Positions 35,900 to 60,400 of a DNA stretch of 64,000 nt are shown one piece after another; positions within the stretch are counted from its first letter, which is position 1; each line of letters opens with the position of its first letter. The position numbers and the translations under genes are program-made. Source of the DNA: Raillietiella orientalis (taxonomy: Eukaryota); assembly GCA_036172245.1 (NCBI GenBank), contig JAYWIR010000030.1, positions 1,488,001 to 1,552,000 on the forward strand, read 5' to 3'. Under the pieces are notes generated by a model. That model was not told the origin of the DNA. It worked only from the letters and a program-made list of their open reading frames with translations, and made no database searches.

Positions 35900-37900
35900 G
35901 AAGAAGCGTTCGAAAGAATTGCTGAAAAGTGGATCATTCTGCTATCTCCGAGGAGTTCTCAGAGTCCATCAACAGATTCCAGCTCGCGGGTGCCCAGGCC
36001 TCCTCTGTAAGAAGCGTCCGCAAGTACCACTCTTGTTCATCTCCCACGCTTGTTACCTGAAACCTTTCTGCAGCCGTTGCCTGGACCTGTTGTTCTTTGA
36101 AGTGTGCGGGAGAGTCTTGACACGGTCTCCAAGGAACAGCAAAAAGAACTCGAGTAAGCTGTTTATTCTTGACTAGCCCAATGTCGCCTGCCGCGGCGAT
36201 CGCAGCTTCGTGCTCCGTCAGCGGAGCCGTGGCGGTCCAAAGACCCGACAACAGACGCAGAAGGCCACATTGCGGGTATTCTCATTTCTGAGGGTCGCGG
36301 TGCGACGATTCCTGGAGGGCAGTCCCACAGCAGGTGCGGGAACCATCCATTCGCCCCGCACTTTAAGCAGTTTCGGGATTCAACTCCCTGGAAACCAGAC
36401 GCAGGATAAGTCAGTGCAGAAAGAGCAGGACACCCCATTTCCACTTCAGGGGGAACGAGGAAGTGTTTACGCACGGAGGAGGGCTAGAGATTTCCTTCGG
36501 AGGACGCATTCAAAGGTCCGATCCACCGAAATGGTCCCTTCCTACGATATGGAATGCCGGTCTCCATCAGCTCACTCGGCTTCCAGCCTCCTCGGAGTTT
36601 GGTCCGTCCTGCAAGCGAGCAGAAGATGGGCTATCTTGCCGATAGGCAACCATCGTTATTTCACCTCAGGGCAGAATGCTCTGCGGCAAGGGGTGTGGCG
36701 GCCAGACGGACAGACTTCTTCGAATCTTGCGGGAATTTCTCCCGGTGGAAGCTTGTGGAGGGAGCGTATGGAAGTGGACCGATGGCAGATGTAATCGCAA
36801 CTCCAGACTCCAGGATTCCAAGTTATTGGGCGGTGGGAAAACCAAGAGTAGTCTTCCAGGATCGAGGCAAGTTGTCGGAGCAGGAAGCAGAATTCCCCCC
36901 GCATCCTGTATCGGCAGCCAGGCAGCAACGCTAGGAATCCTTCTTTGTACGATGCGAATAGTGGACAGAAAACTTCACGGTTAGTAGCGTTGGGATGCTC
37001 TGAAGGCATTCCTGGTTTGTCCACAAGAGCTCTCCACGTTCAGCCTTTCTGTCCAGGCTACAGTGGACAAAATTTTCTGATATGCCGATCTCAGTTCTCC
37101 TTTTCGTCTGTGATCCCCGAGAAAAAATTCACGCATGCACTTTCCAATCACCGTTCCTTGCTTTCCTCTGCTCAGTTTCGCCCTGCTTTTCGGAGACAGT
37201 TCACAGACAGCGTATGAAATCAAAAGAGCGAGGAAAACTCAACGGAGGCTGTTTCGTCACGGATTTCCCATGCGTCTGCGACAGCGAGAAGACAACCTCC
37301 GTAGCAGGACTGGATTGCACGAAAACCAAAAGTCTAAGCACCTGAGTAAAGCGTTCTCCCGGAAAACTAAGGACGAGTGCAAGCATCCAAGTAGGTTACG
37401 GACTCGTTACACCGTTTCCGACTGTTCCCACAAAAAACATAGTGGTCGTTCCCGCAAAAAGGTGACGCACAAAGCAGCCAAGATATTTGGAAACGCCCGA
37501 AGTAATGCTGCTACCGGTATCCAAGCATCTCGTTGCTTCTCCTGAAACATCAAGCGGCAGAGCTGCTCTTGTTCCAAGTGGGCGATTCTTTTCCCAATTC
37601 GTAAGACAGCTTTCTTTACAGAGGAAGGACTGGAGACGCAAAGTAACTGCAGCTGTATGAAAAGAGGAGGATGAAAGATCAGATTCGCTTACTTGAGGCC
37701 GAAACACCTTCACAGAAAAGGCCGTCAAAGCTCGGATCCCTCAAACTGCAGGATGAATCCCATTCGGAAGACACAAGACAACCAGCAGTGCGCTCATGAG
37801 TCGTATCTGAGCAACCGTGCCTCTTCCACCTCCCATTGGCGAGATGGATGGAATCATTTCTTGGAAGATCTGAGACTCCTCTGAAAGGCAACGAAGATAT
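35900..37900 (-). mobile_element. Decayed non-LTR ORF2 C-terminal half spanning the outer palindrome boundary (mirror at about 60200-62000, +)
   Basis: CLKCGANGWFPHLLWDCP zinc-finger motif. FLALLPGCRYRM resembles the 14.8-15.0 kb and 50.1 kb copies. Confidence 0.6.
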
Positions 37901-37990
37901 TAGCATTTATTCGTCCGTACATCTACCAATACACTAGCTGCTTGTTCTCACCGGATAATTTGATGACTTCGTAAGGTGTTAAAAGTAGTG

Positions 37991-39495
37991 CACCCGGATA
38001 AAACGGGGCTATTATTTTTAAAATACAACATGATACGTTAAAATTAATTCTAGTCTTTTGTGCATTGCTTCAGTGAGAATACATGATTCTAGCGGTCCTT
38101 TTGCACTTGTCCTTTCTGACCCGCAGGCCGATGAGGTCCTCCCCACAGGCGAAGGGGGCGAGAAAACCGAAAAAAGAGAGAGAGAGAAAAAAAAAAAAAA
38201 AAACTAAAACGCCTGGAGCGACAAAGTTTACTGGGGTGGGGAGGAATGGGACGGGATCACAATTCGCCGGGAGGAGTCCTCTGCATCCGGTTTCGGATAC
38301 GGGCGAGTGTCGGTTGAACTGTCCGTAACCGGCTCCACGGGCATGTCTTCTCCATGTGGAGGACTGCTCAATGGATGGCATTCCGGCTACGATGACCTCT
38401 TCTCGATGCATTCCAATTCTTCAGTATTCCGTGTACGCAGCAGCTCTCTGCAGCACACGCGGCTGCTGGCAGGGCGTTCCACATCAGGAGGCGACGGAAA
38501 ATGTCTTTCGTGTCGCCCACCGGAATGTTCACAATCGACGAGAGTCGATCCCGCATGGGGAGGAGGGCGACACACTCGAAAAGTAGATGGTGGAAGGTTT
38601 CCCTTTCCCCTCACCCTGCACAATTGGCATCCACACTCCCTGATGTCTAGTGGAAGAGGCGTGCTCTGCACAGCAGTTCCCAATGGAGCGCTGGCAGCGC
38701 CGTCTCTTGCCATTCTAGGGGGAGAGTGCCATTGTGCCAATGCGTTGGGAGCCACTTCACCTCCTCCGGAGGTATGCCGAGTAGCTCGCCCCAGCACACA
38801 AGTCCGTTAGTCAGCAAGGGGGCGAAGGGGGTTGAGGAGTTTTTGCGGGTTGGTAGCGATCTCCCGTAGGCAATGACCAGAGCACCTGCCTCTACGAAGC
38901 CAAGAGAAGTCCACATCGCTCGAGCCGTTGATCTTTGACCACGCGGAAACGGACTACTGAAACCAGGTGGTGCAGTTCGCGGGGACACAGGAGATCCAGG
39001 TATTATCCCTCACCAGAGAAACCACGTCGCGCATGGTTTAGGCTGCGTTCGTCAGCAACAAGGATTGAGGTCAATCCGTTGTAGTTGATTGTTCTATTGG
39101 CGAGGAGACGTGTCGAGATGCACCACGGCGCAGTCCAGAAGGGCGAGTTTGCACATTTGGAGCTGGCGCTCCATGCGCTACATCGTAAGGAGACCGAGTC
39201 CACTGTCCTTGCGCGGAGAGCACAAGTCGTCAAGCCGGGCGCGGAAACTCTGATTGCCCCAAAGGGCTTCTCTTAGCAGGACCCGCGTCCTTGTCTTTAT
39301 CTGTGCTGGGGCGAGGCGAACAAAAAGTAGGGGCGAAGGGGAGGGGGGTCCGAAAAAGCGTTCCACACCGCGGCCCGTATTCCTACAAGTAAAACTTGCC
39401 GTTGTCGAACGTGCCGATCGCCAACTCCAACTTTTGGAGACGGTCGCACCACTCTTCTGCGGCGCGGAAGTCCCCTGACGGAACGCCAAGAAAGT
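37991..39495 (-). mobile_element. 5'-truncated non-LTR element in the left arm (mirror copy at about 58618-60122, +)
   Basis: DSGLGL, WGELLGIPPEEVKW and LHWE motifs. Terminal motif at 37991-38016. Confidence 0.8.
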
Positions 39496-42251
39496 GCAAT
39501 CTTAACGTAAATCACTCGTGGTGGTTGTCTGCTGAAGTCACAAAACTCCTTCAATTTTCAGAATGTCATTTCCCTTCTTCTCCATCACACCATCGCAGGG
39601 ATCAACGTTGTCTCACTTTGAAGAAGATGGATAAGAAATGGTAAAAGTCACAAACTTGCAGAAACCGCGGTCGCAACCTCCTCTGACCACAACTCAATCC
39701 TGTCGATGGAGCGAAAACAAATCTATTCCATGGATACACACACACACTCTCCGTCTGGAAAGGTAACTGCTTGCTTCTGGGCAGGCACGCACTATTCATG
39801 AAAGTTTCCTTTTGCGTACGTGAATGCAGGAATTGCGAATTCATTCCCAACGCGCAGATTGAGTATTGTGGCAGTTTCCGGGTGAATGCAGTCTTACCCT
39901 TTATCTGGACCACAGTCTACGAAAACCGATGCAAAATGCCAGCAGCGCTGTAAATTTGCAGAAGGACCTCAGAGCAGCAAACCTTGCAAAAGTGCGGAAG
40001 AAGGCGGTTTAGGGAAAGCGAACGTGGAAGACAAAGGCAACGTGAAAAGGAACACTGGCATCCTGGTGACGAACTGTGTACAGGGACATCACAAGTCCTA
40101 GGATTACGGCCACCTCGGAGGCATGATGCCTTCTTCGGATTGCTCCCGTACAAGATTGCACCGCATTGGCGTTACAATGCGCCAGCGGTGCCGTTTGTTT
40201 TACCAACTTGGTCGACAGCATGGAGAGTCAGTGATGCATAGTAACTACTCAACCTACTCATTTAATCACAGAACGAACGTGCACGAGCTCGAGGGATCAA
40301 CCGTGGTATCATTTCCCGTGACGAATCCGTCATGCAACAATCTCAGCTTCTCGTTCCGGATGAGCCCTTTGAAGATTCATGACGGTGAAATCACTGACGG
40401 AAAACAAAACAAAACAGAGCATCGGTGTACGTTCACTGCACAACGGCTCTCCTTGTATTATAACTTTTCGTTACCAGTTCATCCTTGCAATGCCCAGAGC
40501 TATACTGAATTCGTGACTGATTGAAAAGTGCTCTTTCCGAAGGAAGATGCTTGATCACCGGTATAAGTGATTTGTTTCGTAAGTGAATTCTTGCTGAAAA
40601 CCTCAGGTCAATGATGAAACTGGCAGATGCCAAGGAAGGGACGGCAATCGTTAGAATAGGAGGGAACGCTGTGCATTCGTGGCACCACGAGTGCACAGGG
40701 CACTTAAAGTCTCCGCGAACTCTTTTCAGTGCATCGAATGCTGCTGCAAACACCGCAGAGTGTGCGCACTCCTTATTCCTGAAAAAAAAAAAACACTCCG
40801 CCGCATGATGCAGTACACAGCAAACTTAGCAGCTTTCATTGTTTTACGAGAGGGAATGAAAGCTTTTTTCGGGGTTGCGTGAGGTTGGTGTGCGGCAAAC
40901 GCCGTGCGACCTCTTCGGATCCCACATCTTCTGTCAAAGAACAACAGGGAAGTTGCCAGCAGGGAACCTCGATCTTTAAAATCTTACCATAAAAGAAACG
41001 CCTTCTTAGGAAAATGTTCCTCCCGCCTCACACAGCACCTGTACAGATTTCCCTCATAGAGCAAGCGTTGTTATCCCAGCCGTCCACTTTTCAGGGTAAA
41101 TTGGCAGAACAGTTTTCCCCGTCTCCCAAGGCAACTCCCAAGGCGCTCAATCATCGAGCGACCAAACGAATGCATCCGGGGAATCTTCACTGGAAGCACC
41201 ATGAGAAAGCACCAGGCAGCCTCCCGCCACGTTTCCCTCATTCATGAGGCCACTTCGATGGCAGAAGATTCCCAACCAACCGCGAAAACCACGACCCGGA
41301 CGTTGGTTTCGTCAAATTCCATTGCTAACCTTCTTCTTACCATGCGTGGAAGGAAAACACATTTAAATTGTATTTCAATATATTTTCTGACGCACGTCGA
41401 TTACTCTCTCGACTGCAATGCATTTCAAAATTCCTGCAATCCATCCTTCTCCTGCCAACCCGTCGTGCGTCTGTACAGAACATACGTGAGCTTTCCGATT
41501 GCTCGTCCCTGCGTTTCCACGTCATAGCAACCCTTGCTCGAGAAAGGCGAAACGAATGCTCCCTAAACGCAACAGTGCCTCAGGGTTTGCACACATCGTC
41601 CTAATTGCAGTCCACTCGCAATAGGCAATTCGTTTCACTCCTTGATCCCACTTGCTCGCAATCAGCGCGCCTTTTTTCCCTTCCGTTCACACTCTGCGCT
41701 CTTCCCGAAAATCTGTTTAACCTGCTGACCGTGTCTTGTGTTCCAGATGCAGGTAGCTGTTGCCCCACAGTCGCATTTTGCCTCCTAATGGAATTTGGAC
41801 CAATTGCGATTCCTCGTAACCAGTCCTCGCGTCGCAGCTGTTCCGAGTCTTTCAAGCAGCAGCTCAGTGGACCCGTGCAAACATTGCACGTGCGCAATCG
41901 CTAGTGATCTCAGTGTGCCAACACTGCACACTGAGGGCATTAGCATTCCAGCAGTCCGTACGGCACGTGGGAAATCAATTTGAGCTCAAGTCAGTTGGAC
42001 CTCAGCAGCACGCTGCAGCAGTCATCAGTGTACAACAACATCGTTGGTGCTCAAGGTTGTTTCTCTCCTGAAATGTAGAGTGCAAAAACTCGGCAACTGT
42101 GGGAACACGAATTCAGTTTCCATAGGCATGAGGGCATCTTCAGCATCCACCTGATGTTTGCAAGAGCTGAATCTGTTTTTTTTTTTCAAAAAAAATTATA
42201 AAAGGATGCACTTTCCTAGGAACTGCGAGCCATTCCAGAAGAGCATCCTAG

Positions 42252-42731
42252 GCAGTAGGTATCGCATGGGGACTCCAAAACTCAAGTTGCAAAATACGAT
42301 TCACTGGTTATTCGAAATCACGGATGGCGTCTTTGGAAAGCGGAATCGGAAGCAAACGCTGCTAAGTACGGGTGCATATACGTTCAAGAGAAGCGGGAAT
42401 TCGAGATGTCCGATTTTCGCCAACGCCCACACAACTCTTCCTCACTTGGGATGGCACGAAGAGAACATCGGCAGAAGCGAAGCAGCGCGTCTCTCGTCTG
42501 CTGATGGGTATCGAAGCAAGCAAAGGAGAAAGGGTGGTCTTTCGGCGAGGTCACGTGAGTGTCTGCGGAGACCAAATTGCGCACGACCTTCTTTTTGCAA
42601 ACCATGGAAACATGGAATTGCTGGTATGGGTTTTCAGGAAGGGCGATTTTTTAACAACGGAAAACACCTATACGGTGAGCTTCCGTGTTCAGAAGAAGAA
42701 GCGAAATTCGATGAGAGGGCTCCTAAAATAA
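42252..42731 (+). pseudogene. Putative secreted beta-rich domain exon with an in-frame TAA (42363); mirror copy at about 55382-55861 (-)
   Basis: Frame AVGIAWGLQNSSCKIRFTG...KRC*VRVHIRSREAGIRDVRFSPTPTQLFLTWDG... The two arm-to-arm SNPs seen are synonymous in this frame (GTA/GTG, CTG/TTG). The C-x23-C spacing matches the mucin N-terminal domain. Confidence 0.35.
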
Positions 42732-44208
42732 GAGGGAACTATTAACATTAGCAGGGACGTTGATTCTGAAAATGAAGCATTCGTGCAGACACCCGAAAAC
42801 GACGTGCATTGCTGAGGATGCATTGCTCAGTGTACGTTTTCTTCCCGTCTGAAGCATCAGCAGCACCCCTTTTCGAGCTTGACGTGGCTCGAAGAATTTT
42901 CCCACATCTTCATGGAAGGGTGATCTTCGAATCCATCAGGATTGCCTAAACTAAATACGAAGCAGCAGACACTGTTAAAGAGAAACTCCATTAAAAACAG
43001 ACAGAAATGTTGTTGTTATTCATAAGGTGTTGTGTATTCTTCGCTCAAGTGTTGACCAAAGATGATTAGTTGTTTACAGATTAAAAAATAGAACATGCTG
43101 CCTTTGCCTTTGCAACTAGTGGGTTGAACACCTGTGTGCAAAGAGAAATCTGTGTTAAGCCCTCGTCCGTAACCCGCCAGGTACCAGTTCGTCTTCTGCC
43201 TACAACCCTTTAGTGAAACCTGCGGTTCCATCACCAAGCGACGCAGCATGATGTTTCCAAAGATTCAAATGGTAAGGAAGCCGTCTTGCGGTAGCGCCTC
43301 TCTCCTGCTAGGCAGTACGCCTTTCGTAGATGCTGTGAGACCCCTTCTATCGGTGCGGTTTTGCGAGGCCGACCATTCTCGAGAGAATGGAAGGCGATAC
43401 GCCGACGCTCTTTGCCGACTCATCCGATGTCCAGTTCTGTATTGCGGAGCTGCAAGCGCTCTTCACACAACCATGGAGGGAATCGAATGCTACCTCGAGT
43501 TTCCAGGGACGAGTTCTTCGAGATAAATAAGGAAATCGCCCTTTTTTGGCATGGTGGAAAGCACATCTGTAATTTAGAGAAACATCCGATATCGAGGACT
43601 CGTTTGAAAGCATCCCATGAACGTTTCGGTGCCATGGTAGAGCAAGGAGAATGCATCTGAGTCTGCGGACGGTCTCTGCCTCGCTTTGAGAACACCGTAT
43701 GCAACACGGCGGTGTCGCACACGATAACGGCTTTCGTTCTTGAAGTTCGTAGCAGATGAATCCGACTGGCAAATCCGCCGTCCTCTTTGCAGAGCAGTAG
43801 GATTAATCGTTCTTTGCAGTAGGCCCGCTACTATTGCCGCTCGAAGCACTTCAACTCCGATTTGAGGGCGATACGAGAGAAACACGTCAAACTTGAGAGA
43901 GAAGAATACTGCAGTTCTAGGATTAAGCTGCTGGAACTGAGTGTTTGGCATGGGAATCCCAAATTTACTCAGGACGGCGACAAAGATTCGACCGAGAGGA
44001 AATCGCTAAGCATCCCACCGTTTTCTTACGTGTGATGGAAGCCAAGTCACGCTATCGTAATGCTTGCGATTGTCGTTTTTCTTCTTCTTCTCCGGGATCC
44101 ATGCAATCGAGAAAGATGAGATAACAGCTAATGAGAATGGCTCCAATGTTAGTTGCCCTCGCTGTCCTGGGTCGCAATTCTTCCTTCCATTTGACAGACT
44201 GCCAAAGT

Positions 44209-44914
44209 ATGCTAATTCTGTTCTTCCAGGGGCTCCTTGCTGTGGTCCTCTCGCTGACGAGTGCCGTGTACACCGGAAGTGCGATAAAATCGCGCCAGCT
44301 TGGAGCAGACTTGGTATTCGGAAACTTCAGTGGACCTTGCGTAGTAACACTTCTTGTTCCAACTAAACAAGAAGGCATAGACGAAAAGTGCAAGTTGGAA
44401 TGGGGACCAGAGGTGACACCGACCCCGCAGAAGGAGGAGTGCAAAATTGGTGTCAAGGTATTGTATGAAAGCTCTTTCAAGAAACATGTTTTGCTCCCAA
44501 GGGTATTTCAGATCCTCAAAAAGTAATTGTTATCGTTCTTCCGGGTTTAGATGAATGCATCTGTTCGTTTTCGAAGGAAAAGAAGTAAGTGGCTTGCACG
44601 TTTCGGCACGGCAGCATCCACTTTTCTTCCTCGCGTCCGGCAACAGCCGATGCTCTTTGACATACGCGCACGTAACCGAAATCGCGGCTTTCTGTCCCAA
44701 TCACATCCGGAAGAAAGAGAGGATGTGGATGCGCGCATTTTCAGAAAGGCTGCGCATCATCTCGTTTTCACCAAAAATTTATCTCAGGTCTAGAGAAGAT
44801 GATATGGATATCTTTGAAGTGCAAACACCATTCAGTTTGTTTTGCATCTTCCCCCAAAATTCCATATGCTCGTTGCTGTTCTTTGCAGACGATGGCGGCA
44901 GCGTATACTTTTAA
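44209..44914 (+). CDS. Small secreted Cys-patterned protein, copy A (199 aa; exons 44209-44457, 44502-44584, 44647-44914)
   Basis: Signal-peptide-like MLILFFQGLLAVVLSLTSA. Introns GTATTG..CAAG (44 nt, phase 0) and GTAAGT..ACAG (62 nt, phase 2) give one continuous frame. Cys and WGP/FSPKI/VQTPFS motifs are conserved with copy B despite heavy nucleotide divergence. AATAAA lies at 44937. The true start could be in an upstream exon (ttcttccag at 44229 could be an acceptor). Confidence 0.7.
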
Positions 44915-45699
44915 TTTCTTTACCTTCATGGAATTAAATAAAGGCTTTGTTTTTGTGCAGATTCGCAGTTTGAGAAGGAGAGGAAGTTCTCCTAATTGGG
45001 ATGGGCCCATTCGAACCCACTCATTCAGGTCCATCGCATTCATCCCCAGTGGGGATCGAATAAAGCATTCCTGCTTCCTCTCTTCCCAGTAGACAGAGTG
45101 GATTTTGTTTGGAAAAGTGCGCTCGACATGGCGACCCCCCTTTCCTCATGAAGAGGGGGCAGATTCCCTGTGATTCTGGCGCTTGCAGCTTTTCGTGTTG
45201 CAAGCGCTGGCAAAAAATCGTTTCTCAAAAATGGGGAGCGCGATTCGAGTGGAATCCCACTTTTCGAATGATTCCTCCGCCTCCCTGACAACCTCGAGAA
45301 TCCCCGGAATGTGCAGCTTGTGCCTTGTAACGCGACTCCAAATCAAGGAACACCTCATCCAGCGCATATCGTACTGGAAGTAACGATCAGGATGAGATTT
45401 CAGGTGTTGTCCTGCTGACAAAGTCTTCGTGCTTCAGCTCGAGAGGGGATTTGCTTCCACGTTCAAGAAAGCATGTGGCTCTCTTTGTTCATCATTTTCT
45501 CTCTGAGAATGCTTTTCTGCTACGGACAAAGATAAACACAAACACTGAGGATTATTCCAGGGTTTCGAAAGCTGCAGGAAGATCCACAGGTGTTGTCTCA
45601 CCAGTGAGATGCAAGAAAGTCCGCATTTTGTCAACTGCTTGCCTTTGGATCTCTTCCGCATCAAAAGCAAGTTGTCGAAAATATGCAAAGTGCCTCCGG

Positions 45700-47900
45700 A
45701 AGGAGGAGGATGTCTTTCAGTAGAAGGCGAACGGACTGTGATGACAGCAAGTTGAGAAGAAGAGCCGACGTATGCGCACCGTCAGAAATGCAGCATTCAC
45801 AAGGGACCAGATTAAGGGAGACACTTGTGAGATGGAATGCACCGCTCCATCCGAATGGTGCGATGAGTGCATCCCATGGCATTCCTCATCCGGGTGACAC
45901 ACAGTGCCTGAAAGAAAAATGCTGCATGGTAACGGCAACGTGATGCAGCTCGGCACGTGATGCGATTTCAGGGTAACCGCAGCAAAAGGAATTTCAGTGA
46001 TGCTCGGAGACTTTCGAGGAGGGGAAATGAAAACGCGCTGCTCCTTGAAAAACGAGCAGAAAGGAGTTGTGGACGCGTGCTGGTGTCCTTCCACGAAAGC
46101 TTCGCGGGGCACCCCACTCTACGAAGCACGCTATCCCAGAAATAGAAAATATCCCATCGATGCACGGTTAAGAAAGCCCAGCGGCCCATTCCGCACCCAC
46201 CGCTCGCTCACGAACCACTCTGCCTTCATTGCTGACGCGCTGTTTTGACGAATTCCCATTTGTCAACAGCTGGCAATTCGCTGATTGAGGCATCTCGGCG
46301 ATTTGGATACGCTGCCTGCCTTTTTGATCTCTGCGTTCGGAGTTGGAATGCGGGGCTAGGAAGGAATGGGGATAGGAAACACACGGGGAGGTGCCAAAGA
46401 GATGCGCAACCAGGGGAATTTTCTGGGTATAGGAAGTCTTCCGGGGACAGTCTATCATTTCCCACAGCAAGCAGAGAGCGCAAACATTGCGTTTCTAGCT
46501 GGTCCGTGGCGTTGAGTTTTGCCCACGTCTGGGATGTTCCTCATTTCCTGGCACTCACCATTTCCTTCCTTCCGCCAGCTGGCGATCCAGTTGTGGTCCT
46601 GAGCTAAGACCGCCATCTCCCTCATCGGTGCAGTCTTAGGTGGTTCTCAACGAGGTGCTGAGCCAATTTCTCGCTCAGCCAAGATCCGGACCGTCAGGCA
46701 CCAAGGGGTGCTCGAAACCTTCGCAGCCAGGGCTACTTTTCGGGAGGTTTGGAGGTGACGCTGCATCCTTTCCATCGTCGAGTCCGGTGTCCCGAAGTGG
46801 AGCGCATCAGTCCTTCAGGCGAACTCGGTACTTCTGTGTGTCCCAGATGGCTTTTTGCAGAAGAAACTCGTTCCGCTTCTTTATACCATTGGAAGGGGCC
46901 GAATAAAAAGCAAGGCTCGGAGGATCGGGGGCACAGAAGTGTTCCAAATGGAACTCTGGCTGTGAGGAGAAGAGGGGGACCGAACGTGCTTTGCAGAAGG
47001 ACTGTGGAGTTCAGCGAGACTACAGCTCTTCCTCCAAGACGAGGTGAAGACCACTTCTCATGCTGACTCTGAGATGCTCAGCACTCAGGTTCGTTGCTCC
47101 GAGTTCCGTGTTTCGTGTTTGTGGTGTGAACGGTAGCAGTGTTTGCGTAGTTGAGGCGCGAGGAGACACCTTTAGGAATCCTCTGGGAAGAGAAGCTCCC
47201 CTGGGCTTTGGAAGTGAGGGATGCGTTTCACTCAAAATCTCTCATCATAGAAGAGAGGCTGTGGAGCCAGGCGGTCGTGGCGGGATCCTCAGCATCCCAG
47301 GTGGGACTCCCAGCGAACGAGGCCCGTGCACACGCACACACCCCACGATTCAAGGCAGGACTGCATTCTCCGCGACTCCGCTCATTCAAGGGTTGCAGAA
47401 CCTCAAGGTCGAAAGGGAAGAGTCTGTCGACCCCTTTTGGTCAAGAGGGAAGAGGGTCGCCGAGCTCACCTGAGAAGACACTTGTCTTGCCCAACGGCTA
47501 CTAAGGATCTTGGCCGCCGCCGAGCACCGCAGGGTCTTTAATGAGACGGAGAACTGTGAGACCGTGGTCCACCTCACAGGCATAACTGTCCAGGTGGCAG
47601 AGAAAGACTCTTTTTGAAACAATGCGCATGCTGTGGATTAAGCCCCAGTCCCTTCTCCACATTTGCGAGGGATGTTCAGCGCAGATCATCGACCAAGGGA
47701 GCGGGCTGCCCTATAGGTCACAAATACCAGGGGGAAACTTCGACCTGCAGTTCTCCGGCAAAAGGGAAATAGTGAGATCGTGCAAAGGCGGGTCACAAGG
47801 AGGTGCCACGACATCAGGTACCACAGATATGTGTTTAAAAGCTTTGCGAGACCTCTCCAAGGGGACGAACGGTTCTTCAGCACTTTCGAAACTTCCAAAA
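45700..47900 (+). mobile_element. Highly decayed non-LTR ORF2 (endonuclease to RT) running from the left arm into the spacer
   Basis: MLGDF...VDA...TNHSA (APE GDFN/SDH-like) at about 46.0-46.25 kb and SRQDCIL (RQGCPL-like) at about 47.35 kb. Confidence 0.45.
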
Positions 47901-48184
47901 AAAAAACTCGAAAAAAAAGAAAGGAAGCAACGAAAACAGACGTAGTGAAATAGGGCACGTCGAAGCGGCATGGCCCACAAGGCGAACCTGGCCACGTCTA
48001 CAGCCGCAAAAAGCAAAGAAAGAAAAAGGGGAAGACAGTTGGGATTCAGAGGGAAAAGGTGGGTCATGTCCTACCGGAGCTACCAGAATCTGTGGACTCA
48101 CCTGGGAGATCCCGAGAGAGGGTTCTGCCGAGAACGCCGACTGGCAGCGAAAAAAAGCCGGAAAGAGAAGCAGACCTCCTCCTG

Positions 48185-51150
48185 CACCCGGTCATCCGGG
48201 GTGTTTATTTGAAAATAAATACATTTCAAGTCATTTAGCAAGAAAAACAAAAAAAACACGCGAAGTTCACTGGAGACGGCTACCAGCTCGCAGGCCGGAT
48301 TCCAAGGAAGTCAGGAGCGAGAGGGAAGGGGCAATACAACAAAAAAAGGAAAGGGGACAGGATGAAGGTCTTTGGCTTTAGCTGCTCCTTTCTTCCTAAA
48401 ACTGGTGCTGAGTTCTGGTGATCCTCCTGGCGACCTCTTGCAGGTGAACGTAGCCATTCTCATCAAGACGGCTGCTATGCTGGTGACCTTCCTCTGCCAA
48501 CGGGACTCTCTCACAATGCGGACTGTCACCATGGTGAGGATGCAATCATGCCACCTGCTGCAAGCCCGCCTTGCGTGAAGAAGCACCACAGCAAATCCAA
48601 AGCGGTGCCCTCCGGGTGGCTGAACGCCGGAGCGAGTCTTAGACACATGTCACCCAGTATACTGCAGTCAGCACTGCCCTCAAACTCTTTGGCTATGACC
48701 ACCTCCGTAAACTAGGTGTCTGAGCTGATTGTACTGAAATTCCCAGTGCAAAAGCAGCAGAAAATCCCGTTTCCAATGCGGTGGGAAGATGGAGTTGTCC
48801 GCACACAGAGAAGGGACTGGGAGGTCTTCGGGAGGCACAACGAGCAGGTCGCAGGAACGGGAATCCCTCCTGCACCTTCCTGTAGACTGTATTGCACTCC
48901 GCACTCTGTGGTTGCGTCACGCAACGGCCTTTGAGGCATCAAAGAACAATCCCAGAGTAGTGTTGAATCGCCTCTTCATGCGCAATGCTCTTTCGCCAGC
49001 CGCCTCCCCAGCAGTTCTTTGCTGCCTACGAGGGATATTTACCCACAAACGGCGCTCTCGAACGTTTTGCAGCATCCATCGTACTCCTTCGCTTCTCTGG
49101 GCATGCGCAGGGGGTTCGGGGGCAAAGAAAACCTGTCTAAGGAACTGTGGTTCTGAAGCTCAAGTGCTTCTTTCCTCTCCAACAGGCTGTCGACGTTCCC
49201 TTGCAACTGGCGGAGCGATGCAGTTGTGCGCTCTGTCCTTGATGGATCCTCACACCTCGGATGATGATATTTTCGTGAAGGAGTCTTCGCTCTGGTCCCC
49301 TCCGGAGCTCGATTTCCCGCTTGAAAACCCTTCACAATTCAGCCGGAGGTGGCCCAGTGGCCGAGGGATTGTGGAGGTCTAGAGCTACGCGAGAGAAGGA
49401 CGGCACGACGCCATCTACTTCGCCCTGAGCTTCATGAGGGCGGTAGCTAGATGGCCCCACCTGGGAAATACTCGGGTGGAACTAGCCGAAATCCTAGAAA
49501 GGATGAGAGGACGCCCTCCAGTGCCCGGTGACCCTTTCTCTAACCTCTTAATTTTTGTATAAGCTTTTTTTTGGGGGGGAGGGGGGTCCGCCCCTCCTCC
49601 TCTGCTGCGGAGACAAACCTCACCGGTCTACATAACGGTACTCGGCAGGTTCCGAGCATTTTCGGACAATGTAAAGCCGATGGCACGACACATGCATGCT
49701 TACTTTTTACAATAAACATCCGTGCGTGATCTGGTGACAAACCGAGCAGGTCGCTTCACCGAAGAAGTCCTTTCGTCCAGGAACGAGGAGTGACACCATC
49801 TAGATCAACCTGCTTGGTTTCCAGCCGCCATGGAGTTTTTTGACTCCTGCCATTCTCCGGTTAGCTGCTCTGAGAGCAGACAGCCCTCCGACAAGGGACT
49901 GCTACGTCCACTTCTACAGGAGATCTTTCAGCGGGTTGCATAGGAGTTGCCGCAGCAGACCAATTTCTTCTGGACGCACTTCCAAAGTGGCCATCCAGGA
50001 CTCCAGTGCATCCTGCTTCCAGGTATTGCAGTTTTTTGGCCGGCAGGAGATCCACAAGTGAGTTTGCAGCAGTGAGGACAGATGCCTCGGGGGCCAGCCG
50101 AAACAAGGCATCCTATGACGCCTGCGCGGCAGCAGCGCAAGCAGTGCTTGGCGTGCATCGCATCGCCGAAGGATGCGTGGTGCCGGAGCACACCAGGGAG
50201 AGTTCCTCAATTTGCCACAGAGTGCCAGAAGTCGGGACTGCAGAAGGGGAACGAGATCCGCAGACAGAACGAGACAGAAGTCTGCACCCCCATATGGATC
50301 GTTCGTCTGTCTGCCCAAGCCGGAATCCTAGCGCGGCGCCACAAGTCTTTCAGCCGGCTGCCGAACCAGCATGCCTTGTTCGCCGCAACGTCGGAAACAC
50401 GCGAGGCGAACAGCCAGGCGCCTGCGTGGTCAAACGCCGGCGCTCTCCTGTTATCCACGCCGCACCGGAAATCGCGACGGCGGAACCCATCCGCGGCAGT
50501 CGTGTCGGCAGCACCGTTCGTGCCCCGCGCTTTCGGATGTGCACGCTGTTTCGGTGATCCTCTGTGTGTGAAGTCAGCGTAGTGTGAAAAACGTTGGTGA
50601 TGCCCTGGGTCTGGTGCCGGAAGACATCGCTGTGACTGCTCACGGAGGAGGGGCGGAAACCTCCCTTCTCATGGCATTGGAGCCAGTGGAGGGTGCGTCC
50701 CGCCAAGAATCCTCCTCGCTGAACAGGGAAGCTGTGAAGTCGGAGGGTTTCCAGGGCTTCTCTGGCAGCTCACACTCAACTCCAGGACTACAAGGTCCAC
50801 GTATATAACCCTATATTCCCTCCCTGAGTTACAAGGTAGGCAGCATAAACGTGAGATCTGTTGAATCGTTCCGCGAACTCGTCGCCAATTTTGATACCTT
50901 TTTCTTGACCGATTTGGATGCCTAGTGTCTTTTTTCTCTCAGAAGCTGCATAAACTCCAGATTGCAAAAGATGACCGTGCAAGACTCTCTGTCTTGTGAA
51001 GCAGATAGGTCGCAGAGCTGACCTGCAGAGATGATGCTCCTGATGAGACGCTGCTGAGAAGCTGATCACGATCGAAGGGACACGTTGTTCCTGCTGATGG
51101 GAGACCGCTCCGCGGTCGTCCACCTCACCGAGATGGCAGTAAGGACAAGG
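48185..51150 (-). mobile_element. Decayed non-LTR element in the palindrome spacer
   Basis: LCGKLRNSPWCAP, ALLALLPRRRHR and LLLLHW motifs. Terminal motif at 48185-48209. The 5' extent is approximate. Confidence 0.6.
49380..49736 (+). mobile_element. Short 3' fragment of a non-LTR element nested in opposite orientation
   Basis: ARWPHLGN is shared with the 16.0 kb copy, and the 3' region resembles the reverse complement of 12100-12200. It ends AATAAACATCCGTGCGTGATCTGGTG. Confidence 0.6.
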
Positions 51151-51425
51151 ATAACGGAGGACTACGCCATCCGGTAGTTACAGCGGTCAACGCGCTGCAT
51201 GCGCCGTCGAACCGAACTTGCTTCCTCGTATTCAGGAACGTTTGTAAGCAGTCCCTACGAGTGTGTATGAAGTACCTGTTGCAGCGGACATTTTCTTGTC
51301 ATTTCGTTTTACTTCCGAAGACAAGTCGAAAGATGTTTCAAGAGCATTTGCAGAAAACAAAAAGAATTTTTAACTAAAGCTTTCTATTGCACACGTACAT
51401 ATGTATGTATATGTTCCGAAACATG

Positions 51426-54400
51426 CCCTGGTTGCGCTTTTCTTTGGCACCTCCCCCTGTGCTTCCGATCCCCATCCCTTCCTAGCCCCCGCATTCCAGC
51501 TCCGAACGCAGAGATCAAAAAGGCAGGCAGCGTATCCAAATCGCCGAGATGCCTCAATCAGCGAATTGCCAGCTGTTGACAAATGGGAATTCGTCAAAAC
51601 AGCGCGTCAGCAATGAAGGCAGGGTGGTTCGTGAGCGAGCGGTGGGTGCGGAATGGGCCGCTGGGCTTTCTTAACCGTGCATCGATGGGATATTTTCTAT
51701 TTCTGGGATAGCGTGCTTCGTAGAGTGGGGTGCCCCGCGAAGCTTTCGTGGAAGGACACCAGCACGCGTCCACAACTCCTTTCTGCTCGTTTTTCAAGGA
51801 GCAGCGCGTTTTCATTTCCCCTCCTCGAAAGTCTCCGAGCATCACTGAAATTCCTTTTGCTGCGGTTACCCTGAAATCGCATCACGTGCCGAGCTGCATC
51901 ACGTTGCCGTTACCATGCAGCATTTTTCTTTCAGGCACTGTGTGTCACCCGGATGAGGAATGCCATGGGATGCACTCATCGCACCATTCGGATGGAGCGG
52001 TGCATTCCATCTCACAAGTGTCTCCCTTAATCTGGTCCCTTGTGAATGCTGCATTTCTGACGGTGCGCATACGTCGGCTCTTCTTCTCAACTTGCTGTCA
52101 TCACAGTCCGTTCGCCTTCTACTGAAAGACATCCTCCTCCTTCCGGAGGCACTTTGCATATTTTCGACAACTTGCTTTTGATGCGGAAGAGATCCAAAGG
52201 CAAGCAGTTGACAAAATGCGGACTTTCTTGCATCTCACTGGTGAGACAACACCTGTGGATCTTCCTGCAGCTTTCGAAACCCTGGAATAATCCTCAGTGT
52301 TTGTGTTTATCTTTGTCCGTAGCAGAAAAGCATTCTCAGAGAGAAAATGATGAACAAAGAGAGCCACATGCTTTCTTGAACGTGGAAGCAAATCCCCTCT
52401 CGAGCTGAAGCACGAAGACTTTGTCAGCAGGACAACACCTGAAATCTCATCCTGATCGTTACTTCCAGTACGATATGCGCTGGATGAGGTGTTCCTTGAT
52501 TTGGAGTCGCGTTACAAGGCACAAGCTGCACATTCCGGGGATTCTCGAGGTTGTCAGGGAGGCGGAGGAATCATTCGAAAAGTGGGATTCCACTCGAATC
52601 GCGCTCCCCATTTTTGAGAAACGATTTTTTGCCAGCGCTTGCAACACGAAAAGCTGCAAGCGCCAGAATCACAGGGAATCTGCCCCCTCTTCATGAGGAA
52701 AGGGGGGTCGCCATGTCGAGCGCACTTTTCCAAACAAAATCCACTCTGTCTACTGGGAAGAGAGGAAGCAGGAATGCTTTATTCGATCCCCACTGGGGAT
52801 GAATGCGATGGACCTGAATGAGTGGGTTCGAATGGGCCCATCCCAATTAGGAGAACTTCCTCTCCTTCTCAAACTGCGAATCTGCACAAAAACAAAGCCT
52901 TTATTCAAATCCATGAAGGCAAAGAAATTAGTTTTTACTGGTATATTTTGGATAGAATTCTAACCAGCAGTAGCTATCTTTGTAGAAGGCGCAAAAAACA
53001 CTGAATGGTGTTTGCACCGTAAAGGTGTCGGGATCATCTGTATTGGACCTGAGATGAATTTTTGGTGAAAAGGTGATGTTGGATTCGCAGTTTGATGCAG
53101 ACACGTTAGAAATTCATTTTGTTTTCGATGTTTGAATTCTATCAACGCACGAAATCACTCCGTGAGGTAGATTTCTGCTTGAGCTACAGAGTTGCTTTTG
53201 TAATTCTGCGGAAGCCACAGACACAAAGAAATTGCTGGTGGCTTGGATCTATAACCGCCAGCGTGCGAGAAGATTCAGCATCTTTCGAAAAAGATGGCAG
53301 AGGTCGAGCAGATTTTTCACCATTGAGTATGGGAGGGAAGGTCGGGTCGGTGACGCTCGAGATGCGCAGCCTTTCTGAAAATGCGCGCATCCACATCCTC
53401 TCTTTCTTCCGGATGTGAATGGGACAGAAAGCCGCGATTTCGGTTACGTGCGCGTATGTCAAGGAGCATCGGCTGTTGCCGGACGCGAGGAAGAAAAGTG
53501 GATGCTGCCGTGCCGAAACGTGCAAGCCACTTACGTGACTTTGTTCGAAATAGTGCAGTCGCATTTCTTCACATGTTGGGTAATCTCAACAACTACTTTT
53601 TCGGAGTCTCCTGAAAAACTCTTGAGAGAAAAAAATGTTTTTTCAAAGTGCTTTCATACAATACCTTGGCACTAATTTTGCACTTTTGGTTAGTTTCGAG
53701 TGGTTGCAAATCTGGCCCCCATCCCAACTTGCACACATCTAGATCTGAATATGCAGGCTCAAGTGCTACTACGCAAGGTCCACTGAAGTTCCCGAATACC
53801 AAGTCTGCTCCGAACTGGCGCGATTTTATCGCACTTCCGGTGTACACGGCACTCGTGAGCGAGAGGACCACAGCAAGGAGCCCCTGGAAGAACAGAATTA
53901 GCATACTTTGGCAGTCTGTCAAATGGAAGGAAGAATTGCGACCCAGGACAGCGAGGGCAACTAACATTGGAGCCATTCTCATTAGCTGTTATCTCATCTT
54001 TCTCGATTGCATGGATCCCGGAGAAGAAGAAGAAAAACGACAATCGCAAGCATTACGATAGCGTGACTTGGCTTCCATCACACGTAAGAAAACGGTGGGA
54101 TGCTTAGCGATTTCCTCTCGGTCGAATCTTTGTCGCCGTCCTGAGTAAATTTGGGATTCCCATGCCAAACACTCAGTTCCAGCAGCTTAATCCTAGAACT
54201 GCAGTATTCTTCTCTCTCAAGTTTGACGTGTTTCTCTCGTATCGCCCTCAAATCGGAGTTGAAGTGCTTCGAGCGGCAATAGTAGCGGGCCTACTGCAAA
54301 GAACGATTAATCCTACTGCTCTGCAAAGAGGACGGCGGATTTGCCAGTCGGATTCATCTGCTACGAACTTCAAGAACGAAAGCCGTTATCGTGTGCGACA

Positions 54401-57400
54401 CCGCCGTGTTGCATACGGTGTTCTCAAAGCGAGGCAGAGACCGTCCGCAGACTCAGATGCATTCTCCTTGCTCTACCATGGCACCGAAACGTTCATGGGA
54501 TGCTTTCAAACGAGTCCTCGATATCGGATGTTTCTCTAAATTACAGATGTGCTTTCCACCATGCCAAAAAAGGGCGATTTCCTTATTTATCTCGAAGAAC
54601 TCGTCCCTGGAAACTCGAGGTAGCATTCGATTCCCTCCATGGTTGTGTGAAGAGCGCTTGCAGCTCCGCAATACAGAACTGGACATCGGATGAGTCGGCA
54701 AAGAGCGTCGGCGTATCGCCTTCCATTCTCTCGAGAATGGTCGGCCTCGCAAAACCGCACCGATAGAAGGGGTCTCACAGCATCTACGAAAGGCGTACTG
54801 CCTAGCAGGAGAGAGGCGCTACCGCAAGACGGCTTCCTTACCATTTGAATCTTTGGAAACATCATGCTGCGTCGCTTGGTGATGGAACCGCAGGTTTCAC
54901 TAAAGGGTTGTAGGCAGAAGACGAACTGGTACCTGGCGGGTTACGGACGAGGGCTTAACACAGATTTCTCTTTGCACACAGGTGTTCAACCCACTAGTTG
55001 CAAAGGCAAAGGCAGCATGTTCTATTTTTTAATCTGTAAACAACTAATCATCTTTGGTCAACACTTGAGCGAAGAATACACAACACCTTATGAATAACAA
55101 CAACATTTCTGTCTGTTTTTAATGGAGTTTTTCTTTAACAGTGTCTGCTGCTTCGTATTTAGTTTAGGCAATCCTGATGGATTCGAAGATCACCCTTCCA
55201 TGAAGATGTGGGAAAATTCTTCGAGCCACGTCAAGCTCGAAAAGGGGTGCTGCTGATGCTTCAGACGGGAAGAAAACGTACACTGAGCAATGCATCCTCA
55301 GCAATGCACGTCGTTTTCGGGTGTCTGCACGAATGCTTCATTTTCAGAATCAACGTCCCTGCTAATGTTAATAGTTCCCTCTTATTTTAGGAGCCCTCTC
55401 ATCGAATTTCGCTTCTTCTTCTGAACACGGAAGCTCACCGTATAGGTGTTTTCCGTTGTTAAAAAATCGCCCTTCCTGAAAACCCATACCAGCAATTCCA
55501 TGTTTCCATGGTTTGCAAAAAGAAGGTCGTGCGCAATTTGGTCTCCGCAGACACTCACGTGACCTCGCCGAAAGACCACCCTTTCTCCTTTGCTTGCTTC
55601 GATACCCATCAACAGACGAGAGACGCGCTGCTTCGCTTCTGCCGATGTTCTCTTCGTGCCATCCCAAGTGAGGAAGAGTTGTGTGGGCGTTGGCGAAAAT
55701 CGGACATCTCGAATTCCCGCTTCTCTTGAACGTATATGCACCCGCACTTAGCAGCGTTTGCTTCCGATTCCGCTTTCCAAAGACGCCATCCGTGATTTCG
55801 AATAACCAGTGAATCGTATTTTGCAACTTGAGTTTTGGAGTCCCCATGCGATACCTACTGCCTAGGATGCTCTTCTGGAATGGCTCGCAGTTCCTAGGAA
55901 AGTGCATCCTTTTATAATTTTTTTTGAAAAAAAAAAACAGATTCAGCTCTTGCAAACATCAGGTGGATGCTGAAGATGCCCTCATGCCTATGGAAACTGA
56001 ATTCGTGTTCCCACAGTTGCCGAGTTTTTGCACTCTACATTTCAGGAGAGAAACAACCTTGAGCACCAACGATGTTGTTGTACACTGATGACTGCTGCAG
56101 CGTGCTGCTGAGGTCCAACTGACTTGAGCTCAAATTGATTTCCCACGTGCCGTACGGACTGCTGGAATGCTAATGCCCTCAGTGTGCAGTGTTGGCACAC
56201 TGAGATCACTAGCGATTGCGCACGTGCAATGTTTGCACGGGTCCACTGAGCTGCTGCTTGAAAGACTCGGAACAGCTGCGACGCGAGGACTGGTTACGAG
56301 GAATCGCAATTGGTCCAAATTCCATTAGGAGGCAAAATGCGACTGTGGGGCAACAGCTACCTGCATCTGGAACACAAGACACGGTCAGCAGGTTAAACAG
56401 ATTTTCGGGAAGAGCGCAGAGTGTGAACGGAAGGGAAAAAAGGCGCGCTGATTGCGAGCAAGTGGGATCAAGGAGTGAAACGAATTGCCTATTGCGAGTG
56501 GACTGCAATTAGGACGATGTGTGCAAACCCTGAGGCACTGTTGCGTTTAGGGAGCATTCGTTTCGCCTTTCTCGAGCAAGGGTTGCTATGACGTGGAAAC
56601 GCAGGGACGAGCAATCGGAAAGCTCACGTATGTTCTGTACAGACGCACGACGGGTTGGCAGGAGAAGGATGGATTGCAGGAATTTTGAAATGCATTGCAG
56701 TCGAGAGAGTAATCGACGTGCGTCAGAAAATATATTGAAATACAATTTAAATGTGTTTTCCTTCCACGCATGGTAAGAAGAAGGTTAGCAATGGAATTTG
56801 ACGAAACCAACGTCCGGGTCGTGGTTTTCGCGGTTGGTTGGGAATCTTCTGCCATCGAAGTGGCCTCATGAATGAGGGAAACGGGGCGGGAAGCTGCCTG
56901 GTGCTTTCTCATGGTGCTTCCAGTGAAGATTCCCCGGATGCATTCGTTTGGTCGCTGGATGATTGAGCGCCTTGGGAGTTGCCTTGGGAGACGGGGAAAA
57001 CTGTTCTGCCAATTTACCCTGAAAAGTGGACGGCTGGGATAACAACGCTTGCTCTATGAGGGAAATCTGTACAGGTGCTGTGTGAGGCGGGAGGAACATT
57101 TTCCTAAGAAGGCGTTTCTTTTATGGTAAGATTTTAAAGATCGAGGTTCCCTGCTGGCAACTTCCCTGTTGTTCTTTGACAGAAGATGTGGGATCCGAAG
57201 AGGTCGCACGGCGTTTGCCGCACACCAACCTCACGCAACCCCGAAAAAAGCTTTCATTCCCTCTCGTAAAACAATGAAAGCTGCTAAGTTTGCTGTGTAC
57301 TGCATCATGCGGCGGAGTGTTTTTTTTTTTTCAGGAATAAGGAGTGCGCACACTCTGCGGTGTTTGCAGCAGCATTCGATGCACTGAAAAGAGTTCGCGG

Positions 57401-60400
57401 AGACTTTAAGTGCCCTGTGCACTCGTGGTGCCACGAATGCACAGCGTTCCTTCCTATTCTAACGATTGCCGTCCCTTCCTTGGCATCTGCCAGTTTCATC
57501 ATTGACCTGAGGTTTTCAGCAAGAATTCACTTACGAAACAAATCACTTATACCGGTGATCCAGCATCTTCCTTCGGAAAGAGCACTTTTCAATCAGTCAC
57601 GAATTCAGTATAGCTCTGGGCGTTGCAAGGATGAACTGGTAACGAAAAGTTATAATACAAGGAGAGCCGTTGTGCAGTGAACGTACACCGATGCTCTGTT
57701 TTGTTTTGTTTTCCGTCAGTGATTTCACCGTCATGAATCTTCAAAGGGCTCATCCGGAACGAGAAGCTGAGATTGTTGCATGACGGATTCGTCACGGGAA
57801 ATGATACCACGGTTGATCCCTCGAGCTCGTGCACGTTCGTTCTGTGATTAAATGAGTAGGTTGAGTAGTTACTATGCATCACTGACTCTCCATGCTGTCG
57901 ACCAAGTTGGTAAAACAAACGGCACCGCTGGCGCATTGTAACGCCAATGCGGTGCAATCTTGTACGGGAGCAATCCGAAGAAGGCATCATGCCTCCGAGG
58001 TGGCCGTAATCCTAGGACTTGTGATGTCCCTGTACACAGTTCGTCACCAGGATGCCAGTGTTCCTTTTCACGTTGCCTTTGTCTTCCACGTTCGCTTTCC
58101 CTAAACCGCCTTCTTCCGCACTTTTGCAAGGTTTGCTGCTCTGAGGTCCTTCTGCAAATTTACAGCGCTGCTGGCATTTTGCATCGGTTTTCGTAGACTG
58201 TGGTCCAGATAAAGGGTAAGACTGCATTCACCCGGAAACTGCCACAATACTCAATCTGCGCGTTGGGAATGAATTCGCAATTCCTGCATTCACGTACGCA
58301 AAAGGAAACTTTCATGAATAGTGCGTGCCTGCCCAGAAGCAAGCAGTTACCTTTCCAGACGGAGAGTGTGTGTGTGTATCCATGGAATAGATTTGTTTTC
58401 GCTCCATCGACAGGATTGAGTTGTGGTCAGAGGAGGTTGCGACCGCGGTTTCTGCAAGTTTGTGACTTTTACCATTTCTTATCCATCTTCTTCAAAGTGA
58501 GACAACGTTGATCCCTGCGATGGTGTGATGGAGAAGAAGGGAAATGACATCCTGAAAATTGAAGGAGTTTTGTGACTTCAGCAGACAACCACCACGAGTG
58601 ATTTACGTTAAGATTGCACTTTCTTGGTGTTCCGTCAGGGGACTTCCGCGCCGCAGAAGAGTGGTGCGACCGTCTCCAAAAGGTGGAGTTGGCGATCGGC
58701 ACGTTCGACAACGGCAAGTTTTACTTGTAGGAATACGGGCCGCGGTGTGGAACGCTTTTTCGGACCCCCCTCCCCTTCGCCCCTACTTTTTGTTCGCCTC
58801 GCCCCAGCACAGATAAAGACAAGGACGCGGGTCCTGCTAAGAGAAGCCCTTTGGGGCAATCAGAGTTTCCGCGCCCGGCTTGACGACTTGTGCTCTCCGC
58901 GCAAGGACAGTGGACTCGGTCTCCTTACGATGTAGCGCATGGAGCGCCAGCTCCAAATGTGCAAACTCGCCCTTCTGGACTGCGCCGTGGTGCATCTCGA
59001 CACGTCTCCTCGCCAATAGAACAATCAACTACAACGGATTGACCTCAATCCTTGTTGCTGACGAACGCAGCCTAAACCATGCGCGACGTGGTTTCTCTGG
59101 TGAGGGATAATACCTGGATCTCCTGTGTCCCCGCGAACTGCACCACCTGGTTTCAGTAGTCCGTTTCCGCGTGGTCAAAGATCAACGGCTCGAGCGATGT
59201 GGACTTCTCTTGGCTTCGTAGAGGCAGGTGCTCTGGTCATTGCCTACGGGAGATCGCTACCAACCCGCAAAAACTCCTCAACCCCCTTCGCCCCCTTGCT
59301 GACTAACGGACTTGTGTGCTGGGGCGAGCTACTCGGCATACCTCCGGAGGAGGTGAAGTGGCTCCCAACGCATTGGCACAATGGCACTCTCCCCCTAGAA
59401 TGGCAAGAGACGGCGCTGCCAGCGCTCCATTGGGAACTGCTGTGCAGAGCACGTTTCTTCCACTAGACATCAGGGAGTGTGGATGCCAATTGTGCAGGGT
59501 GAGGGGAAAGGGAAACCTTCCACCATCTACTTTTCGAGTGTGTCGCCCTTCTCCCCATGCGGGATCGACTCTCGTCGATTGTGAACATTCCGGTGGGCGA
59601 CACGAAAGACATTTTCCGTCGCCTCCTGATGTGGAACGCCCTGCCAGCAGCCGCGTGTGCTGCAGAGAGCTGCTGCGTACACGGAATACTGGAGAATTGG
59701 AATGCATCGAGAAGAGGTCATCGGAGCCGGAATGCCATCCATTGAGCAGTCCTCCACATGGAGAAGGCATGCCCGTGGAGCCGGTTACGGACAGTTCAAC
59801 CGACACTTGCCCGTATCCGAAACCGGATGCAGAGGACTCCTCCAGGCGAATTGTGATCCCGTCCCATTCCTCCCCACCCCAGTAAACTTTGTCGCTCCAG
59901 GCGTTTTAGTTTTTTTTTTTTTTTTTCTCTCTCTCTCTTTTTTCGGTTTTCTCGCCCCCTTCGCCTGTGGGGAGGACCTCATCGGCCTGCGGGTCAGAAA
60001 GGACAAGTGCAAAAGGACCGCTAGAATCATGTATTCTCACTGAAGCAATGCACAAAAGACTAGAATTAATTTTAACGTATCATGTTGTATTTTAAAAATA
60101 ATAGCCCCGTTTTATCCGGGTGCACTACTTTTAACACCTTACGAAGTCATCAAATTATCCGGTGAGAACAAGCAGCTAGTGTATTGGTAGATGTACGGAC
60201 GAATAAATGCTAATATCTTCGTTGCCTTTCAGAGGAGTCTCAGATCTTCCAAGAAATGATTCCATCCATCTCGCCAATGGGAGGTGGAAGAGGCACGGTT
60301 GCTCAGATACGACTCATGAGCGCACTGCTGGTTGTCTTGTGTCTTCCGAATGGGATTCATCCTGCAGTTTGAGGGATCCGAGCTTTGACGGCCTTTTCTG

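Follow-up and report, generated by a model that had tools for sequence, protein, structure and literature searches.

We argue that, in the stretch of Raillietiella orientalis DNA analyzed here (hereafter the window: 64,000 nucleotides of contig JAYWIR010000030.1), gene conversion between the arms of an inverted duplication homogenizes the arms and part of one intron (intron 3) of two duplicated genes (A and B), while the differences between their exons stay; we give this reading a probability of roughly three in four. As observations it draws on the identity profile of the two arms, the exon structure obtained by homology, the old divergence of the exons and the intron patches found among paralogs, and as interpretation on conversion as the cause at A and B, on selection, on secretion and on the direction of an insertion/deletion (indel).

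Outside the gene body the arms (Table 1) differ at 22/7,899 sites upstream of the gene and at 1/1,405 downstream of it, i.e. at 23/9,304 sites overall (0.25%), and contain perfect-match runs of up to 1,767 bp. Their ends are eroded (the first 28 bp contain 6 differences and the last 80 bp about 11), and further arm homology was not found beyond either end (36329-46423 compared with 61784-51418). Self-comparison of the window bore out the inverted arrangement of the copies and the 8.6-kb interior between the two near-identical 174-bp segments (the ‘island’ and its partner) that the initial annotation had described. A fold-back artefact was ruled out, as the arms are not identical and contain a 600-bp diverged patch together with an indel. 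The assembly shows one arrangement only, with no chimeric A/B copy found in it, and neither a third DNA-level copy of gene A/B nor a second haplotype of the locus was found there.

The arms are predicted to carry two intact, convergent four-exon genes, each encoding a cysteine-rich and probably secreted protein of roughly 150 aa (A 153 aa, B 149 aa, in models built by homology to paralogs). The short coding exon 1 was placed by reference to an upstream ATG and donor present in 27/37 paralog models, many of them with a similar short peptide. Judged by eye, the N-terminus looks like a signal peptide; over the first 39 residues the proteins differ by 1 amino-acid change, and thereafter 39/102 residues are identical. 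Among 28 genes, A and B are mutual nearest relatives in all three of the larger exons (exons 2, 3 and 4). This structure departs from that of the initial annotation, which missed the 44-nt intron at 44458-44501 and took the island for intron 2 plus the start of exon 3; the island is wholly intronic (the first 174 nt of intron 3) and includes no exon. An exon start through the acceptor at 44744 would give short tails that reach a stop after 15 and 18 residues and lack the invariant T-P, C, F and C, and the last exon supported by the family starts at 44788 (B: 53048). Minor use of the acceptor at 44744, which has a good consensus, is possible.

Table 1. Features of the inverted duplication and of the two gene models (window coordinates).
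Feature	Position	Strand	Remarks
Left arm, 10-kb inverted duplication	36329..46423	+	Window self-comparison; eroded ends
Right arm, same inverted duplication	51418..61784	-	Window self-comparison
5-kb spacer between arms	46424..51417	.	Free of inverted self-matches; no recombinase family found
Gene A coding exon 1	43248..43271	+	Inferred; 8 codons, ends in ATG before phase-0 donor
Gene A exon 2	44230..44457	+	Putative signal-peptide core; near-identity with B through 44345, divergence beyond
Gene A intron 2	44458..44501	+	Length 44 nt; 6 mismatches to B; corresponding paralog introns 45-50 nt
Gene A exon 3	44502..44584	+	Diverged, 35/83
Island (5' 174 nt of gene A intron 3)	44585..44758	+	Splice donor to deletion breakpoint
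3' end of gene A intron 3	44759..44787	+	Whole intron 203 nt
Gene A exon 4 through stop codon	44788..44914	+	Diverged, 45/121
Gene B coding exon 1	54842..54865	-	Inferred; mirrors A exon 1 in a stretch free of gaps and differences
Gene B exon 2	53665..53883	-	Homology model
Gene B intron 2	53621-53664	-	Homology model
Gene B exon 3	53535..53620	-	Homology model
Island partner (5' 174 nt of gene B intron 3)	53361..53534	-	Sequence comparison
About 283 nt of gene B intron 3 absent from A	53078..53360	-	CATC at both breakpoints
Gene B exon 4 through stop codon	52928..53048	-	Homology model

The island (44585-44758) and the reverse complement of its partner (53361-53534), each 174 bp long, have 2 mismatches (at 44656 and 44700), and the blocks that flank them are diverged (32/96, 6/44 and 35/83 differences in the left block, 44346-44584; 3/29, 45/121 and 3/23 in the right block, 44759-44937), both as had been reported. 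The accompanying view of the island as conserved relative to its surroundings has to be given up: at 2/174 (1.15%, or 0.011) it is no better than the arms at 0.25% (p=0.076), and its longest perfect run is 71 bp. The anomaly is the diverged exon blocks, and the island is not specially conserved. Its edges are explained by anatomy, the 5' one being the last base of a diverged exon and the 3' one a deletion in copy A, set by 283 extra bases that follow directly in copy B and that the initial annotation does not mention (CATC is present at both breakpoints of the indel). The direction of the indel is most likely a loss from copy A, to judge from the length of intron 3 across the family (21/28 non-redundant genes have 480-525 nt; B has 486 nt, and A, with 203 nt, the shortest intron of the 28).

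From residue 40 on, the synonymous divergence between A and B is 0.34 (0.45 corrected), as compared to 0.011 for the island and 0.0025 for the arms, and a Fisher test of the island against these synonymous sites gives p=4e-12. The exons are thus older in divergence than the arms and the island, and one age cannot fit all parts; given that the exons are old, that A and B are mutual nearest relatives and that there is no third copy, something re-homogenizes the arms and the intron. Furthermore, 12/96 of the non-coding bases inside the diverged blocks differ (p=1e-4 versus the island), so that the non-coding bases adjoining the diverged exons are diverged as well, as predicted by hitch-hiking.

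We consider it very unlikely that the island is instead kept by purifying selection on an intronic element (an RNA structure or a regulatory site), a reading that would account for a 5' edge lying exactly at the splice donor and for the finding that in older paralog pairs intron 3 often falls below synonymous divergence (e.g. 0.17 versus 0.37 in L006/L011). The folding z-score of the island is -0.8, an Rfam search with it gave no match to E=1, and similarity is no lower across 9 kb of arm, including its repeat fragments. The introns of paralogs reach at best about 62% similarity to it over 114 nt. The coincidence of the 5' edge with the splice donor also raised cDNA-mediated conversion of the exons, which was rejected for want of a donor and because divergence extends to intron 2 and to the 3' end of intron 3.

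Under the conversion reading, an old inverted duplication would have carried two intact convergent gene copies, and conversion between its arms would maintain near-identity in the arms, in the promoter and putative signal peptide, and in that part of intron 3 which can still be converted. Tracts overwriting the mature-protein exons would not be retained, the likeliest reasons being selection for two different proteins and accumulated mismatch that blocks pairing; the island would then be the piece of intron still open to conversion, between a diverged exon edge and the 283-bp deletion in A. Near-identical flanks and introns surround an old divergence confined to exons, as in divergence peaks of the opsin type, and the signal peptide and non-coding parts are conserved around a diversified mature protein, as in the small secreted salivary gland protein genes (SSSGP) of the Hessian fly (PMC2955719). 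Selection on the exons is at most suggested, since pN 0.41 and pS 0.34 from residue 40 on (pN/pS about 1.2) do not differ significantly (p=0.32). Evidence that may be held against the conversion reading includes this result, the single-ratio omega values of the family (given further below), the exceptional place of A and B among palindrome twins, and the mosaics among paralogs that involve exons.

The exceptional place of A and B emerges from four other inverted duplications with family genes, whose arms are 99.1-99.97% alike (three are more diverged at their outer ends) and whose five twin gene pairs show only 0-2 exon base differences, which leaves A/B as the only diverged pair in the five palindromes examined. 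Palindromes seem, as far as the assembly goes, to be a common home of the family. At C26:807141-846370 and C50:133084-157073 (L036-L044) each palindrome arm has two head-to-head family genes, and in the unlike head-to-head pair of C50 the promoter, exon 1 and intron 1 match at 95-99% over 655-679 bp, with proteins identical at 42/139 residues (30%), a contrast that favours the conversion reading. More inverted duplications, with arms 97-99.97% alike and 40 kb-1.26 Mb apart, were observed on C89, C92 and C48 (L045-L053, L065, L066).

An arm divergence of 0.25% could also have an allelic origin. A and B would in that case be two old, highly divergent alleles of one locus, homogenized by allelic recombination at the intron and flanks, and either captured together by a recent inverted duplication or joined where the assembly switches haplotype between two homogeneous palindromes. 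The near-identical exons of the twins in the other four palindromes fit such an origin, as do the low and even divergence of the arms and the state of the assembly (many short contigs, with near-duplicate family loci that are possibly haplotigs). We nonetheless regard it as rather unlikely, since the eroded arm ends suit an old duplication, the assembly contains no second haplotype of the locus, and intron patches also occur among genes that are clearly paralogous.

Recombination among these dispersed paralogs was examined in 13 alignable members of one clade (13/37 models, with near-duplicates and one broken gene left out), which form 858 triplets. A partner change of intron 3 relative to both exon blocks was significant after Bonferroni correction in 5/858 triplets, which are not independent and represent about two events. 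L030 is L024-like in its exons (67:15 sites) and L023-like in intron 3 (33:12), and L018 has a run of 21 L008-like sites within intron 3 between L010-like flanks; both have an intron tract with the same partner on either side, the mark of non-crossover conversion. Conversion tracts are detectable among dispersed paralogs, and for A and B themselves conversion is what we infer. A change of partner between exons 2-3 and exon 4 was significant in 0/858 triplets (best p=6e-4, threshold 5.8e-5), the few exon-4 sites limiting power. L014 is a mosaic, L011-like in exons 2-3 (67:7) and not in exon 4 (17:15; p=4e-5), with the end of its tract seemingly inside exon 4 and not at intron 3; in L009, exon 2 is L013-like and the switch lies near intron 2, not intron 3. 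The exon 2-3 tree and the exon 4 tree reject each other weakly (AU p=0.025 and 0.043). Together, the two mosaics and the tree conflict indicate that slow evolutionary mixing happens in the family, with switch points that, in these alignments, are not confined to intron 3. A PHI-like test was also significant (0/500 permutations) and is not relied on, as differences in rate between exons and introns can affect it.

These results bear on the central proposal of the initial annotation, namely that the locus acts as a shufflon-like diversifier. The geometry was right, as recombination within the island would flip the 8.6-kb interior and exchange the last exon between the copies, with no internal stop in either of the chimeric reading frames; in-frame chimeras follow from shared intron phase, which is true of any such paralog pair. 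The idea that conversion tracts would shuffle modules held in part: intron 3 tracts do occur among paralogs and some reach exons, and significant changes of exon-4 partner numbered 0/858. The diversifier itself found no support. Both copies are complete open genes, each with its own start exon and identical upstream DNA, rather than one constant 5' gene accompanied by silent partial ones; at the edges of the island no family of short repeats was found, the homology spanning 10 kb instead, and the loci that contain a 14-base word of the island (10/70) all overlap A or B; and, as noted above, the assembly holds no chimera and the last exon shows no significant flip. The reported absence of a recombinase from the window was confirmed in 167 frames scanned with Pfam (ORFs of at least 85 aa in one arm, in the spacer and past 61.5 kb, and of at least 120 aa before 36.5 kb, where three overlapping frames of a 5-kb repeat array were left out). 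Genome-wide, the tyrosine recombinase family PF00589 had 0 matches, as compared to 14/14 positive control genomes; the search consisted of PF00589, and intron-split genes, serine recombinases and RAG-like genes lie outside its scope.

Perfectly matching sequence in the island makes up 1.8% of that of the arm (0.3% if 50 bp is needed, none if 100 bp is needed). With a longest run of 71 bp in the island and of 1,767 bp elsewhere, nearly all arm-to-arm crossovers would move whole genes. In mouse cells, recombination is reported to have dropped 20-fold when the longest stretch of perfect identity was reduced from 232 to 134 bp (PMC2583991). The same source describes recombination on matches of <50 bp between close alpha-globin repeats, which lends some plausibility to passive shuffling, i.e. 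to rare crossovers or one-sided intron 3 tracts that yield exon-4 chimeras at low frequency. Such events, which are compatible with the conversion reading, would agree with the open chimeric frames, with the L014 and L009 mosaics and with the weakly conflicting trees; we hold them to be possible and on the whole unlikely, as no triplet (0/858, with limited power) shows a significant flip between exons 2-3 and exon 4, the switch points of L014 and L009 do not lie at intron 3, and the island offers so small a share of the identical arm sequence.

A programmed, shufflon-like inversion at the island that generates combinatorial proteins in somatic cells is, in our judgment, extremely improbable. 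The inverted layout, the in-frame products and the apparently fast-evolving, secreted family would suit it, against which stand the mere two extra products that could arise, the lack of a dedicated short site, of silent tails and of a tyrosine recombinase match, and an island sequence that other family members do not share. A comparable proposal of programmed editing, made for nematode HYP1 (PMC11228951), was later withdrawn or rejected, to judge by the title of PMC13577501. We likewise hold it to be highly improbable that intron 3 is a directed recombination point, with a regulated inversion between the two islands that varies a secreted protein with no recognisable recombinase and, in living animals, gives exon-4 chimeras far above the island's share of the arms. 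Should directed inversion prove true, it would be a rare instance of programmed protein shuffling in an arthropod, which the sequence gives little reason to expect.

The shufflon of IncI1/IncI2 plasmids resembles the A/B locus in its inverted repeats, inversion at which could exchange C-terminal segments without loss of frame; as described in PMC5430464, it combines a single main pilV gene with partial C-terminal ORFs, repeats of 19-23 bp and the tyrosine recombinase Rci encoded next to them, and yields mixtures within a clone. At the A/B locus no Rci-like recombinase, 19-23 bp repeats or partial C-terminal ORFs were found. Another comparable layout is that of the palindromes of mammalian X and Y chromosomes, for which inverted arms >99% alike around a spacer and arm-to-arm conversion are reported (PMC8600007, PMC8981503); the A/B palindrome differs in having arms of about 10 kb with a deeply diverged coding patch. 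By analogy, the pattern of a converted intron between exons that are kept different appears already known in kind, from opsins, SSSGP and GOT1. In the primate red/green opsin genes (PMC3924837), introns of duplicates are described as homogenized by conversion with differences fixed in exons; there the peak lies on two tested residues of one exon and outgroups are available, whereas in A/B, known from sequence alone, three exons are diverged, amino-acid identity is 38% and the copies are inverted. The Hessian fly SSSGP genes (PMC2955719) likewise encode small secreted arthropod proteins, reportedly with conserved promoter, UTRs, signal peptide and intron, a diversified mature protein and short conversion tracts proposed as for A/B. 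The A/B family differs in its fixed cysteine frame and in often residing in 10-14 kb palindromes, and the likeness noted is one of pattern. In Tigriopus californicus, GOT1p1 and GOT1p2 are arthropod paralogs for which divergence islands under conversion, and rare tracts that create novel combinations, are described (PMC3728101); they encode a housekeeping enzyme studied with population data, in contrast to the single assembly available for A/B. We consider A/B a clean extra example of duplicates that differ only in exons; the functional surface would then probably lie in exons 2-4, and the family may take part in interactions with a host, prey or microbes.

Searching the genome at the protein level returned 45 matches at E<=1, 25 of them at E<=0.001 (both window copies included). 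From 40 locus-strands examined, 37 full models were built and 3 were incomplete; 7 stretches that repeat other loci were left out. L014 and L015 (at the ends of C63 and C92) match over 7.3 kb at 99.99% up to the contig ends and are probably an assembly overlap, not two genes; such overlaps may inflate the family counts. All models (37/37) have one intron in phase 0, 45-50 nt long, and one in phase 2, and an alignment of intact genes shows six cysteines, together with a small number of further residues, to be invariant (26/26). An in-frame stop interrupts exon 2 of L010, L018, L019, L027 and L028, which are probably pseudogenes. Estimates of single-ratio omega, made with recombination ignored, came to 1.29 in a set of 11 genes and to 0.84 in a set of 26. 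No exon 2 homologue was found outside the genome at E<=0.01 among proteins of 147-2000 aa (many members lie near the lower bound), no Pfam family covers exons 2-4, and the family had no usable Atlas match; 3 matches of a 25-sequence exon-2 profile, to repetitive proteins and over a short stretch only, were judged to be due to chance. The prediction for exon 2 alone (a helix and four strands; pLDDT 56, pTM 0.29) was too poor for a fold search. Taken together, these features suggest a lineage-specific family of some 40 fast-evolving and presumably secreted proteins, for which the libraries searched offered no homologue. Nuclear receptors and chitin-binding cuticle domains are present in the genome and suggest an arthropod; searches for SL1 and for nematode cuticle collagens gave no match, as did their controls, so that they carry no weight.

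Elsewhere in the window, many degraded repeats are present, among them reverse-transcriptase fragments (PF00078) at 15124-15720 (-) and 17228-17824 (-). The opposite strand of a long repeat array is open at 23607-29189, a + frame with no Pfam match, and at 23465-28963 (-) the array forms a 1,832-codon open frame of mucin-like character, built of Ser/Thr/Gly/Pro-rich repeats of about 156 bp (52 aa).
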